DNA from: a phage
Strand: one strand, 5' to 3'
DNA length: 2,577 bases
Sequence record: PZ049715.1
The first letter of the stretch is position 1, and each line of letters begins with the position of its first letter. Below the pieces are notes generated by a model. That model ran no database searches and was not told the origin of the DNA. It worked only from the letters and a program-made list of their open reading frames with translations. Positions 1 to 2,577 of the stretch are shown here, one piece after another. The position numbers and the translations under genes were made by a program.

Positions 1-34
1 AACGGTTAATTATTTATAAGGGAATTAATACGAT

Positions 35-100
35 ATAAGCCAATTGTATGATCGTTACGATTGGCTTATGACTGATTTTTCAAATGGCATTCTTTTTTTT
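35..100 (+). terminator. Candidate intrinsic terminator or structured element: 14-bp stem with 7-nt loop followed by T tracts
   Basis: 35-48 ATAAGCCAATTGTA pairs with 56-69 TACGATTGGCTTAT; the single non-Watson-Crick position (45/59) is a G·U pair in the plus-strand RNA. Loop is 49-55. T5 at 76-80 and T8 at 93-100 follow, but the first T tract begins 6 nt after the stem, so the geometry is imperfect. If real, it would terminate a plus-strand gene lying left of the window. On the minus strand the hairpin is preceded by A runs and not followed by a U run. Confidence 0.3.
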
Positions 101-133: not shown

Positions 134-168
134 TTCAGTGGGTAGAGCGTAGGTGTCCTGCCACTGAA
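134..168. repeat. Inverted repeat TTCAGTGG / CCACTGAA (8 bp) around a 19-nt spacer, followed by the 10-bp palindrome AAAGCGCTTT (171-180)
   Basis: Perfect 8-bp complementarity between 134-141 and 161-168; 171-180 is self-complementary. Located 60-95 bp downstream of the Cys-rich gene stop. Neither strand has a U tract after it, so it is not a canonical terminator; it may be a protein-binding site or an RNA-stabilising stem. Confidence 0.3.
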
Positions 169-228
169 TAAAAGCGCTTTCCTACCAAGTCCATAAGATA
201 CCATCTTGGCAGGAAAGCGGCTTGCTGG

Positions 229-558
229 TTATACAGCCATACGTTCACATTCCTCAGCGCACTTCATACAGGCTTTCGCGCACTCTTGGCAGTGATCCAT
301 CTGATGCTTGGCACACTCTTCACCGCAGGCTCGGCAAATTTTTGCACACAATGCACAGAACTCTTTAGCCAACTCGCTCTGGCGACTCATGAGTCTGGCT
401 GCCAGAGCACATATGTCAGCACAATCTCTGTCGAGCTCAATGCAACGGGCCATCGTTTGTACGTCGTCTTCAAGTAAACAGGCAGATGCGCATGCTTCGC
501 AAACTAGAGCGCAGTTAGAACAAGCTTGAATGCAGCTATTGAACATTGTTTCAGTCAT
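229..558 (-). CDS. Cysteine-rich four-helix-bundle copper-binding/storage protein (DUF326, Csp3-like), 109 aa, no signal peptide
   Basis: ORF with ATG at 558..556, preceded by GGAGGA four nt upstream; stop TAA at 231..229. Translation has 19 Cys in 109 aa, arranged in repeated C-x2/3-C runs (CIQAC, CALVCEACASAC, CIELDRDCADIC, CALCAKICRACGEEC, CQECAKACMKCAEEC) in an Ala/Glu/Lys-rich, helix-prone background, which is the hallmark of DUF326/Csp proteins. It sits directly downstream of a Cu-sensing two-component pair. The N-terminus (MTETMFNSC) is not hydrophobic, so the protein is predicted cytosolic. Confidence 0.75.
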   Translation of the reverse strand: MTETMFNSCIQACSNCALVCEACASACLLEDDVQTMARCIELDRDCADICALAARLMSRQSELAKEFCALCAKICRACGEECAKHQMDHCQECAKACMKCAEECERMAV

Positions 559-562
559 GACT

Positions 563-568
563 TCCTCC
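563..568 (-). promoter_or_regulatory. Shine-Dalgarno (GGAGGA) for the Cys-rich gene
   Basis: Minus-strand mRNA reads …ACTTTGGAGGAAGTCATGACTGAA…, with the SD core four nt before the ATG at 558. The TTG at 570 used by the ORF track lies inside the SD itself and is therefore unlikely to be the start. Confidence 0.6.
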
Positions 569-668
569 AAAGTTCGTATTTTAGCGTATAGTCTTGAGCT
601 GGCCTGAGGTGATCCTCTAGCAGCTCATAAATCCGACATATTCAGAGTTCGTCCGTTCCAATGGTTAA

Positions 669-686
669 CATTACAATCGTGTAAGG
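669..686 (-). promoter_or_regulatory. Candidate copper-box operator: inverted repeat TTACA-N4-TGTAA, extended to CcTTACA-cgat-TGTAAtG on the minus strand
   Basis: Plus strand 671-675 TTACA and 680-684 TGTAA are exact reverse complements around a 4-nt spacer; the pairing extends to 669/686 with one mismatch at 670/685. It lies in the cusS-to-Cys-rich-gene spacer, about 110 bp upstream of the ATG, and a weak -10-like TGAATAT (minus, about 645..638) follows some 25 bp downstream. OmpR-family copper regulators are known to bind palindromic boxes near -35. Assignment is by position and symmetry only. Confidence 0.3.
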
Positions 687-743: not shown

Positions 744-2123
744 TTATTGGCGGGGAAATTCCATGTGAAAGCCCGTCACGCCGTCTAATGAGGTGCACCA
801 GATTCTGCCTTTATGGGCCTCAACAATAGATCTGGTAATAGCCAAGCCGAGGCCAGCGTTGCTTGGACTACCCTCGCGCCGGGCAGGATCGACCCGATAG
901 AAGCGATAAAAGAGCTTGTCCAGGTGCTCGGGCTCGATCGTCCCTCCGGGATTCTCGACGCTGAGGGTTACCGTTCTTTCCGCCTCGTGAATCGTTACAG
1001 AAATAGTTTCCCCTACCGGGGTGTAACGCAGCGCGTTGGATAACAAATTGGAGACCGCTCTATCAATCATTAATTTATCTCCCAGCACATTTCCTGCGCC
1101 TGAGACTGAGAGACGGATATCGCGTTCGTCAGCCACTAAGTGGTAATACGCAAGCAGTTTAGCAACGACATCAGCTAGTTCGATAGACGCTTGTTCGGGA
1201 ATAATCAAGCCGTTGTCGGATTTGGCCAAAAAGAGCATGTCGTCAATAATGCGTGACATACGCTTCAACTCCTCTAGATTGGAGTAAAGATTCTCCTCAT
1301 AAGCATCAATATTCCGCTTTTTGGTCAGCACCACCTCGGTGTGGGTCATGAGGTTGCTAACAGGGGTTCGCAGTTCATGAGCAATGTCCGCCGAGAAATT
1401 GGAAAGCCGAACAAAGGCATCTTCCAAGCGATCTAACATCGCATTGAAGGACAGAACCAATTGCTGTAACTCAAGCGGTATCGGTTCAAGCGGCATTCGT
1501 TCCTGCAACGACCTTGCTGACATCGATGCGGCGAGATGGGTAACTTGCCTCAGAGGCCTGAGACCGCTTCTAACTACCATCCAGCCAAGCGCAGCACTAA
1601 TTAGAGCGCTGACGCTTAATCCAACGCCGAACCAACGCTGCAAAGTCTGAAAGAAATGCGCGTGGTTAGTGACATCAAGAATCAACAGTGCTGTAAGTGG
1701 TTCGGGCTGGTCTGCTACCGAGATTCGGGCAGTCAATCCTCTATACAGGCGGCCGGCATATTTCCATTCCCACATATTCTGCTGTTCTGCGTCCCTATAG
1801 CTTTCCGGGACGTCGACTGTCTTGGGATCAGAAAAGAGCACTCTGCCATCTTCGCTCAAGATGGTCGCCGCTAAATCATGATGGGCACCTAGCAGAGCTC
1901 GCAACTGCGGTAGCTCCTCAGCAAGGTTTGCGCTGCTGCGTACGTTATTGAAAATTTTCTTGGTCGATTCGAGCTTCTCCACCAAGGCCTGCCGATCCAA
2001 CACTTCGAAGTGATGCTGGCTAAGCAAATTGAAGCTCAGCCCAGCTATGGTGAGAACTACAACCACCACAGACATGAACATGACACTCATTCGGGCGGTC
2101 AGCGAAAGGTGACGCAGTCTCAC
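744..2123 (-). CDS. cusS: Heavy-metal sensor histidine kinase (CusS/CopS family): TM1, periplasmic sensor domain, TM2, HAMP, HisKA, HATPase_c
   Basis: HisKA H-box [15 protein letters not shown] with phospho-acceptor His at 1377..1379. The following block [27 protein letters not shown] resembles E. coli CusS as I remember it. HATPase motifs: N-box [35 protein letters not shown]2-box [16 protein letters not shown]. Two hydrophobic segments ([23 protein letters not shown] and [21 protein letters not shown]) flank a periplasmic domain of about 130 aa. Start placed at GTG 2123..2121, which overlaps the upstream TGA as GTGA and keeps the family-typical SLTARM motif before TM1; ATG at 2090 is the alternative. 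The track's ATG at 2261 would overlap the regulator by about 140 nt and adds an Arg-rich, non-homologous extension. Stop TAA at 746..744. Confidence 0.92.
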
Positions 2124-2577
2124 TCCGGTGCATCCATCATATAGCCCATGCCACGCACGGTATGGATCAGTTTGTGCTCGAAGTCGTCGTCGACTTTTGC
2201 GCGCAGACGGCGTACCGCGACCTCGATAACGTTGGTGTCGCTGTCGAAGTTCATATCCCATACCTGAGATGCAATCAGAGACTTCGGAAGCACCTCGCCG
2301 CGTCGGCGCATCAACAATTCCAGCAGTGAAAATTCCTTCGCCGTCAGATCAATTCGCTTCCCAGCACGAACGGCGCGGCGCTTTAGCAGGTCCACTTCGA
2401 GATCTGAAATTTTCACGGTGGTTTGGGTGGGGGAGCCGCTGCCCCTGCGAAGCAATGTCCGGACCCTTGCCAGAAGTTCGGAGAACGCGAACGGCTTAAT
2501 CAGGTAGTCGTCCGCGCCCAGCTCCAGGCCTTTGACGCGGTCTTCCACGCCATCACGTGCGGTCAAGAACAGTACGT
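2120..2577 (-). CDS. cusR: Heavy-metal (Cu/Ag) two-component response regulator, OmpR/winged-helix family (CusR/CopR-like); 5'-partial, N-terminus lies beyond the window end
   Basis: The minus-strand frame stays open to the window edge (…[29 protein letters not shown]…); the M at 2566 in the ORF track is an internal TTG, not the real start. Visible are the end of the receiver domain (conserved K in LIKPF) and a complete winged-helix DNA-binding domain ([71 protein letters not shown]). Long stretches match the E. coli CusR sequence as I remember it. Stop TGA at 2122..2120. The symbol is family-level; copR, pcoR or hprR orthology cannot be excluded without a search. Confidence 0.9.

Follow-up and report, generated by a model that had tools for sequence, protein, structure and literature searches.

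A conserved palindrome upstream of csp3 as a probable CopR/CusR-type operator in copper islands of Pseudomonas and Stutzerimonas

All three genes of the window, by which we mean the whole stretch of 2,577 nt analysed here, lie on the minus strand: the 3' part of a response regulator gene, a gene for a sensor histidine kinase and a small Cys-rich gene, csp3. The features are given below from the higher to the lower coordinates.

2120..2577, minus strand: copR/cusR-type response regulator, C-terminal 151 codons, the gene running off the window (Pfam Trans_reg_C)
744..2123, minus strand: copS/cusS-type heavy-metal sensor histidine kinase (TIGR01386, 468 bits against a cut-off of 292.6)
670..686, minus strand: candidate CopR/CusR-type operator or "copper box", CCTTACAcgATTGTAAT (motif match, conservation, recurrence)
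653..659, minus strand: conserved block GGAACGG (GAAACGG in relatives), candidate -35 element (kept across lineages with diverged flanks)
638..644, minus strand: TGAATAT, the -10 candidate of the original prediction, unsupported (not conserved)
632..637, minus strand: conserved block GTCGGA (GTCGTA in relatives), candidate -10 element (alignment)
561..568, minus strand: ribosome-binding site of csp3, GGAGGAAG (GGAG kept in the alignment)
229..558, minus strand: csp3, 109 amino acids with 19 Cys, predicted cytosolic four-helix-bundle copper storage protein (DUF326 and PDB match)
167..222, minus strand: intrinsic terminator of csp3, a 16-bp-class hairpin followed by UUUUAUU (fold energy)

The locus encodes a heavy-metal response regulator and sensor kinase pair. 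From domain and profile matches, the regulator is a heavy-metal response regulator of the OmpR family; its full-length copy in the 20-kb island of Stutzerimonas stutzeri A1501 (locus L001) scores 344.7 bits with TIGR01387 (cut-off 279.2), and it falls below the equivalog cut-off of Escherichia coli CusR (335 against 420 bits). The kinase carries the CusS sensor, HAMP, HisKA and HATPase_c domains of Pfam, starts with a GTG that overlaps the stop codon of the regulator gene and ends with a stop codon at 744-746, from which a spacer of 185 nt leads to the start of csp3. Over 2576 nt the window is 100% identical to three chromosome loci (L008-L010), for which the public records are GenBank assemblies such as CP025149.2 and CP063358.1. 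In these chromosomes the window DNA sits inside a copper island, where genes for DUF2933, a P-type ATPase, an HMA chaperone, DUF411, DsbD and multicopper oxidase/CopB are found divergent from the regulator.

The csp3 product matches Pfam DUF326 with 57.1 bits (cut-off 20.4) and is a clear homologue of the Csp3 proteins of Bacillus subtilis and M. trichosporium (PDB 5fig and 5arm), its best PDB match being B. subtilis Csp3 5fig (E = 1.7e-28, residues 6-108). It aligns only to positions 45-150 of the profile of the TAT-bearing Csp1, below the Csp1 cut-off; the TAT-signal part of that profile is left unmatched and the protein has no signal peptide. Its Cys-lined DUF326 repeats, its length of about 110 amino acids and the lack of a TAT or Sec signal all point to membership of the Csp3 group. 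Translation would start from the ATG at 558. The fold of the csp3 terminator reaches -28.2 kcal/mol (z = -3.6), none of 200 shuffled sequences being as stable; it had escaped the simple terminator scan, its loop being longer than 8 nt. With its own ribosome-binding site and a strong terminator, csp3 is therefore a self-contained unit. The gene is monocistronic, and ribosome-binding site, terminator, box and the conserved blocks described below form a compact module, consistent with its presence in several copper clusters.

The dyad reads CATTACAATCGTGTAAGG on the plus strand at 669-686 and CCTTACACGATTGTAATG (also written CCTTACAcgATTGTAATG) on the coding, minus strand at 686-669. The original prediction was correct in its sequence and coordinates, and also in placing the dyad between the kinase stop and the Cys-rich gene, the order on the minus strand being 744-746 for the stop codon, 686-670 for the box and 558 for the ATG. 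Between the kinase stop and the box there are 57 nt, and between the box and the csp3 ATG 111 nt. Its core, TTACA-N4-TGTAA, is found at 671-684 and has perfect 5-nt arms; when the arms are extended to 7 nt there is one mismatch, A:G at 670/685. The description of an 18-bp dyad with a single mismatch holds for this hyphenated 7-N4-7 form and fails for a continuous 18-bp dyad, in which only six of the nine pairs match, the central four nucleotides (ATCG) not being self-complementary.

From a statistical perspective, the bare palindrome is no better than chance. Dyads with perfect 5-nt arms and a gap of 0-10 nt occur three times in the 185-nt spacer against 2.05 in shuffled spacers (P = 0.34), those with 7-nt arms and at most one mismatch three times against 2.8, and a repeat search with a 6-nt seed did not report the dyad. 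The dyad as a significant feature in its own right was consequently rejected, since shuffled spacers give as many; it is as a match to a known motif that it exceeds chance, and the argument for a function has to be built on evidence other than the palindrome.

ALTERNATIVES examined included an RNA hairpin or terminator, read-through from copS and a CopY-type cop box. An inverted repeat within a transcribed spacer could act at the level of the RNA, as a hairpin, terminator or attenuator on the 3' end of copS or on the csp3 leader. Against this, a stem made from the dyad would have five pairs, rich in A and T, and would lack a T-run. In the fold predicted for 650-705 the two arms are not paired with each other, and 33 of 200 shuffles are at least as stable (z = -1.0). 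The bases between the arms vary without compensation while both arms are invariant, as would be expected of a protein site. The terminator scan gave no match in the spacer and the Rfam search no family match, and the hairpin, terminator and riboswitch readings were rejected on the terminator scan, the comparison of the fold with shuffles and Rfam. An RNA-level role of the dyad is, on this evidence, extremely improbable.

The identity of the dyad as a motif emerges from comparison with known copper boxes. On the coding strand, the box CTTACAcgattGTAAT agrees with the Pseudomonas aeruginosa CopR consensus CTGACAn5GTAAT at 10 of the 11 specified positions. With at most one mismatch allowed, this consensus finds one match in the spacer, where 0.004 would be expected, and it is the sole match in the whole window. 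The consensus (from PRODORIC) is quoted together with a CzcR site, GAAACn6GTAAT, in PMC11195947. It has the same length and orientation as the csp3 box, with GTAAT nearest the gene, and differs in its left half, CTGACA against CTTACA, so that the csp3 site is the more symmetric of the two.

The closest described counterpart comes from P. paraeruginosa IHMA87, in which CusR, CopR and CzcR all act via one palindrome in the pcoA2-cusR intergenic region, which was found by DAP-seq and verified by EMSA, and which a 4-bp mutation inactivates (PMC11195947). The palindrome is printed there as ATTCATnnATGTAAT; we read it as ATTACATnnATGTAAT because the same paper calls it a "perfect palindrome" and gives the mutant as ATTACATnnATAGCCT. 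Against ATTACATnnATGTAAT, the csp3 box is identical at 11 of the 14 specified positions. The two sites share the TTACA-N4-TGTAA core, the spacing and the TGTAAT half-site, and the pcoA2-cusR palindrome likewise lies in a horizontally acquired Pseudomonas copper island, beside a box-preceded cusRS/copRS pair. They differ in their flanks, the csp3 box having C for A at position 1 and ...ACAC/ATTG... for ...ACAT/ATG..., and in their setting: the pcoA2-cusR palindrome occupies a divergent intergenic region between regulator and operon, whereas the csp3 box is downstream of a kinase gene and would serve one small gene. The csp3 gene is not mentioned in PMC11195947.

More distant relatives are the E. 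coli CusR box, AAAATGACAAnnTTGTCATTTT as quoted in PMC11195947 and also given as TGACAAnnTTGTCA, and the TGACA-N4-TGTCA-like repeats covered by the P. putida CopR1/CopR2 footprints (PMC12428095). Both have the 5-N4-5 inverted geometry of the csp3 box, and in both species an OmpR-family heavy-metal regulator is associated with a copper regulon and an autoregulated two-component operon. The half-sites are TGACA/TGTCA in E. coli and P. putida and TTACA/TGTAA in the csp3 box, which, unlike those boxes, is without A/T-tract extensions. The original prediction had noted that the half-sites differ from those of the E. coli CusR box, which is right, yet TGACAAnnTTGTCA has the same 5-N4-5 geometry. It had also suggested a lineage-specific variant of the box; the variant is real but already described, TTACA/TGTAA(T) being the published Pseudomonas form.

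The half-sites of the csp3 box, CTTACA-cgat-TGTAAT, conform to T(G/T)ACA...TGT(A/C)A with a gap of 4 bp and carry the TGTAAT signature, and the box is placed in non-coding DNA upstream of a copper gene, csp3, with the GTAAT half nearest the gene. By every sequence-level criterion, it would count as a "copper box" of the proteobacterial CopR/CusR family, in the TTACA/TGTAAT form known from Pseudomonas. Two other assignments were tried and rejected. The "cop box" of Gram-positive CopY/CopR is given in PMC7253601 as TACAnnTGTA and has the TACA/TGTA letters and the link to copper in common with the csp3 box; its regulator, however, is a winged-helix repressor of the BlaI/MecI type and not part of a two-component system, it acts by repression, and the spacer measures 4 bp here against N2 there. 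A CzcR box of the GAAACn6GTAAT type, using the GAAAC block downstream, was discarded as both order and spacing are wrong, the arrangement here being GTAAT-N11-GAAAC.

The original prediction had proposed to look for the dyad upstream of other copper genes, and in the 20-kb island of S. stutzeri A1501, on which the recurrence scan was run, it is found before two of them, copR and the multicopper oxidase gene. The core TTACA-N4-TGTAA occurs exactly twice in these 20 kb, once at the csp3 site and once at 7683-7696, with 65 nt between it and the copR ATG, and the recurrence includes in this way the promoter of the regulator itself. One more site appears when a mismatch is allowed, CCTGACAGAACTGTAATGTT at 1664-1679 upstream of the multicopper oxidase gene, which matches CTGACAn5GTAAT at 11 of 11 positions. 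Matches to the consensus with at most one mismatch number three in the island against 0.18 expected, and none of 100 shuffles reaches three. The oxidase and csp3 boxes have the same orientation, with the GTAAT half nearest the gene, and share the flanks CCTKACA....TGTAATGTT, 16 of 20 bases being in common. Between copR and the DUF2933 gene, at about 7470, there is also TTAC-N5-GTAA, which resembles the box but falls short of it by one bp and was left out of the count. With a box before copR and a consensus box before the multicopper oxidase gene, csp3 would therefore be part of the copper regulon of the island.

For a wider comparison, one genome per species was scanned with a Csp3 alignment, which gave 80 loci. 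All csp3 homologues with at least 86% protein identity carry CCTTACAnnATTGTAAT, 125-138 nt before the ATG. In a footprint alignment of 12 distinct, diverged csp3 upstream sequences, no variation is seen in 15 of the 17 columns of the box, whereas the remainder of the spacer has 21 such columns out of 165 (Fisher p = 1.7e-10); these counts are not fully independent, since the compared loci are related by descent. The variable columns of the box are those of the central dinucleotide only, which is CG, AG, GC, AC or AT. The half-sites are kept while spacer and flanks drift, and such invariant arms around a free centre are the signature expected of a dimeric protein site whose spacer would be uncontacted.

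Within 300 nt upstream of csp3 homologues the box has a density of 1.17 per kb, compared with 0.063 per kb elsewhere in the loci. Of the 44 matches found elsewhere, 40 lie outside ORFs of at least 150 amino acids, though 77% of the bases are inside such ORFs; from this and from the enrichment it follows that the motif would be a general regulatory word of these copper islands. A chance palindrome without function would be compatible with the shuffled spacers and with the silence of the repeat search, as described above; what stands against it is that the dyad matches a known motif, recurs in the island, is conserved and is enriched both upstream of csp3 homologues and in intergenic DNA. The comparative data effectively refute a chance origin, to which we give next to no credence.

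The box is kept in different genomic contexts, and outside it the upstream regions of these contexts are essentially unalignable. Many of the box-bearing csp3 loci have no kinase gene upstream. One of them (L016) has copB and a cytochrome c gene ahead of csp3 and lacks an upstream two-component system; in two loci of the P. entomophila type (L055/L057, 70% identity) it follows cusA-cusF, with the box at -102; and in three Alcaligenaceae loci (L073/L083/L085) copRS and csp3 are transcribed divergently, with the box ATTACAAAATTGTAAT between them. The plasmid collection gave one useful diverged copy, from the plasmid of Pseudomonas sp. FeN3W, which is decayed and has a truncated kinase gene, and the box is still kept there. 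An exact-box search was mostly negative in csp3 paralogues at 60-77% identity, which show another conserved block, GAACTT, instead; paralogues at 66-72% identity have no box, and the link between box and csp3 is therefore not universal to the family.

These contexts bear on the possibility that most csp3 expression comes from transcripts reading through from the autoregulated copRS operon, the dyad adding little. The terminator scan found no terminator-like site in the 185-nt spacer, an AT-only inverted repeat past the kinase stop is too weak to terminate, and copR has its own box; with no terminator between copS and csp3, part of the expression of csp3 could therefore come from read-through. 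The box, however, is the best-conserved element of the spacer, is followed by conserved promoter-like blocks and travels with csp3 to loci that have no copRS upstream. Read-through would explain neither the conservation of the box nor its presence where copRS is lacking, and as the main source of csp3 expression it is very improbable.

The same loci are also of interest for the identity of the regulator. The box may be a true regulator site at which the adjacent regulator is not the main actor, a paralogous CopR or CzcR acting instead, or at which binding does not activate and leads to competition or repression. In the P. paraeruginosa trio, the outcomes on one box range from strong activation to blocking, with CopR blocking CusR at pcoA2 (PMC11195947). 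The same box can in this way be bound unproductively in Pseudomonas, and binding alone is therefore not proof of activation. Some csp3 homologues have the box but no adjacent two-component system, and these must be served by a regulator encoded in trans. Several CopR/CzcR paralogues are present in P. stutzeri. On the other side, the box of the island is directly downstream of its cognate copRS, whose promoter has the same box, and it precedes the conserved promoter-like blocks and does not overlap them, which fits activation. Control by a paralogue, or by binding that does not activate, is in our view unlikely, and less easily dismissed than read-through. Activation by a copper-sensing two-component regulator, with the adjacent one or a paralogue (core CopR/CzcR) as the binder, is the reading that we prefer.

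Downstream of the box, the promoter has to be sought among elements that depart from the canonical ones. The block GGAACGG begins 10 nt after TGTAAT, and the TC of GTCGGA comes exactly 16 nt after it; the resulting GRAACGG-N16-TCGKA blocks likely mark the promoter, with GGAACGG as a candidate -35 and GTCGGA as a candidate -10 element. If these assignments are right, the box would be centred near -50, in the position of an activator. The -10 candidate of the original prediction, TGAATAT, did not survive the alignment: it is TACACGT in a lineage at 94% identity (L015/L011) and unrelated sequence in the other lineages. It was dropped together with TAAAAT (583-578), neither being conserved or having a -35 partner at 16-18 nt. 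The promoter scan found no canonical sigma-70 -35/-10 pair at the expected distance; its sole find was a pseudo-promoter on the plus strand (670-697), which takes the dyad as its "-35" (ATTACA) and is on the wrong strand for any gene. In the cop promoters of P. putida, 5'-RACE likewise showed no canonical sigma-70 hexamers. The CopR footprints of that species are found anywhere from about -35 to -130 (PMC12428095).

The consensus of AlgU/sigmaE promoters is GAACTT-N16/17-TCtgA, with TCgtA and TCggA as accepted variants (PMC3819740; PMC10651043). The window has GAACgg-N16-TCggA (658-632) and its relatives AAACGG-N16-TCGTA, in which the -35 part is imperfect and the motif of low information. In two distant box-bearing homologues (L048 and L063), GAAACTT-N16/17-TCGAC stands at a comparable offset; set against the consensus this reads AAACTT-N17/16-TCGAC, again a match to a motif of low information. 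The resemblance of the conserved blocks to an AlgU/sigmaE-type promoter is a lead and not a finding, and we regard such a promoter as more doubtful than likely; from these blocks we infer the approximate start site and the kind of sigma factor that might be involved.

Taken together, the dyad is very probably the docking site from which a copper-sensing two-component regulator switches on csp3. The original prediction of a binding site for a winged-helix heavy-metal regulator and of an activator-dependent csp3 promoter finds support in silico, in the recurrence of the dyad before other copper genes of the island, in half-sites that are kept while the spacer drifts and in the geometry and core shared with the validated Pseudomonas box. 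The dyad would serve as operator for OmpR-family response regulators of the heavy-metal branch (CopR/CusR/CzcR). CopS/CusS would sense periplasmic copper and cause the phosphorylation of the regulator, whose phosphorylated dimer would bind the inverted half-sites CTTACA and TGTAAT, 4 bp apart. Bound about 50 bp upstream of the transcription start, it would recruit RNA polymerase to an intrinsically weak promoter, and the monocistronic csp3 would be induced to make a cytosolic, Cys-lined copper-storage protein; the same box before copR would provide positive autoregulation. We infer binding, and activation as its direction, and we hold this explanation as a whole, copper-induced activation of csp3 from such an operator and csp3 as a member of the copper regulon of the island, to be highly likely.

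Both the type of operator and the switch are already well understood; what is new, as far as the searchable literature goes, is csp3 as a target. In that literature, no report was found of a Csp3/DUF326 gene as a target of CopR/CusR, and none of the known Csp3 proteins is described under a periplasm-sensing CopRS/CusRS box. A Streptomyces homologue of Csp3 has been reported under the control of the cytosolic sensor CsoR.

The box-bearing gene follows copS in some loci, copB and a cytochrome c gene or cusA-cusF in others, and in still others it is divergent from copRS. A more speculative extension, which we consider rather doubtful, is that box, promoter, csp3 and terminator make up a portable copper-inducible cassette that has moved between islands, with an AlgU/sigmaE-like ECF promoter (GRAAC-N18-TC). 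If the cassette were real, a cytosolic copper store would be under the control of a periplasm-sensing two-component system; if the ECF promoter were real, csp3 would integrate copper, through phosphorylated CopR, and envelope stress, through the sigma factor.

The regulation of Csp3-type cytosolic copper stores is poorly documented in Gram-negative bacteria. A conserved CopR/CusR box before csp3 would mean that the periplasmic copper signal governs the decision to store copper along with the genes for efflux and oxidation. This would link cytosolic copper storage to a periplasmic copper sensor with no new mechanism, and the promoter is directly testable. For the annotation of copper islands, which are spreading among Pseudomonas and Stutzerimonas, the csp3 box would add a target to the CopR/CusR regulon, and its natural variants sharpen the model of the motif, with a free central dinucleotide and invariant CCTTACA / ATTGTAAT. 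Furthermore, box, weak promoter, ribosome-binding site and terminator would offer, in about 520 bp, a compact copper-responsive part.

The predicted CopR box (window 670-686, minus strand) that precedes csp3, the gene of the 109-aa copper-storage protein, is followed on its downstream side by a pair of conserved blocks:

653-659, minus strand: GGAACGG, candidate -35 block
632-637, minus strand: TCGGA within the candidate -10 block, at a spacing of exactly 16 nt

From its sequence, the arrangement GGAACGG-N16-TCGGA is a candidate promoter that resembles the AlgU/sigmaE-like type (GAACTT-N16/17-TCtgA) more than the sigma-70 type. Two distant csp3 homologues (L048 and L063) carry GAAACTT-N16/17-TCGAC after their own boxes. 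The coding strand of the window also holds a direct repeat, ACGAACT(T/C)TG, of which one copy (643-652) comes after the candidate -35 block and before the candidate -10 block and the other (568-577) adjoins the ribosome-binding site (ACGAACTTTGGAGG), with the CGAAC of this latter copy being kept in the relatives.

A further box was found in L001, the 20 kb of the S. stutzeri A1501 copper island:

L001 1664-1679, minus strand: full-consensus CopR box CCTGACAGAACTGTAATG, 5' of the multicopper oxidase gene

This box lies 324-423 nt 5' of the annotated oxidase start, a distance implying that the leader is long, that the start has been mis-called or that a small ORF has gone unannotated.

Two hairpins were located on the other side of csp3:

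167-222, minus strand: intrinsic terminator of csp3, a strong hairpin directly 3' of the csp3 stop, followed by UUUUAUU
34-70, plus strand: terminator-like hairpin 3' of a 99-aa ORF, with a T-run to about 80

The csp3 terminator (-28.2 kcal/mol, z = -3.6) is overlooked by a simple terminator scan because its loop is long. The 99-aa ORF (L001 10550-10849) converges on csp3, ends at about window position 9 and gave no match in Pfam. At the 5' end of the spacer between the kinase gene and csp3, the kinase gene (copS/cusS) terminates in a double stop, TAA TAA (741-746), and an AT-only inverted repeat, TAAAATAT-N13-ATATTTTA (715-743), lies directly 3' of the kinase stop; it is probably dispensable, since the stretch containing it is deleted in the 94%-identity lineage (L015/L011).

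A relic copy of the csp3 module is present on the megaplasmid of Pseudomonas sp. FeN3W (L011, CP136011.1; 6000-7900), which retains, at about 87% identity, csp3 with its box and the 3' portion of the kinase gene. The annotation of this interval lists neither a kinase nor a regulator gene, and where the match ends it overlaps a zeta-toxin family gene. The copper island itself adjoins mobile elements that differ from strain to strain:

L002: Tn7-like tnsABC/tniQ genes
L004: mer operon
L001/L007: IS21 and a group II intron reverse transcriptase

Contigs on which the Csp3 protein is identical and the kinase matches at 100% also occur in MAG bins that bear the labels Bacillota and Rhizobiaceae (L012, L014), a sign of either mis-binning or a very recent transfer. 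L005 and L001 do not differ in the Csp3 protein or in the spacer box, but the kinase (gene 8436-9815) is only 94% identical, suggesting recombination inside the island.

The CopR box is absent from the csp3 paralogues of Stutzerimonas core genomes (L032-L047; 66-72% identity), which have in its place, about 100-130 nt 5' of the ATG, a strongly conserved (T)GAACTT block, a candidate -35 element like those of ECF or sigma32 promoters. The missing box and the shared block suggest that the two groups of csp3 paralogues are tied to different signals.
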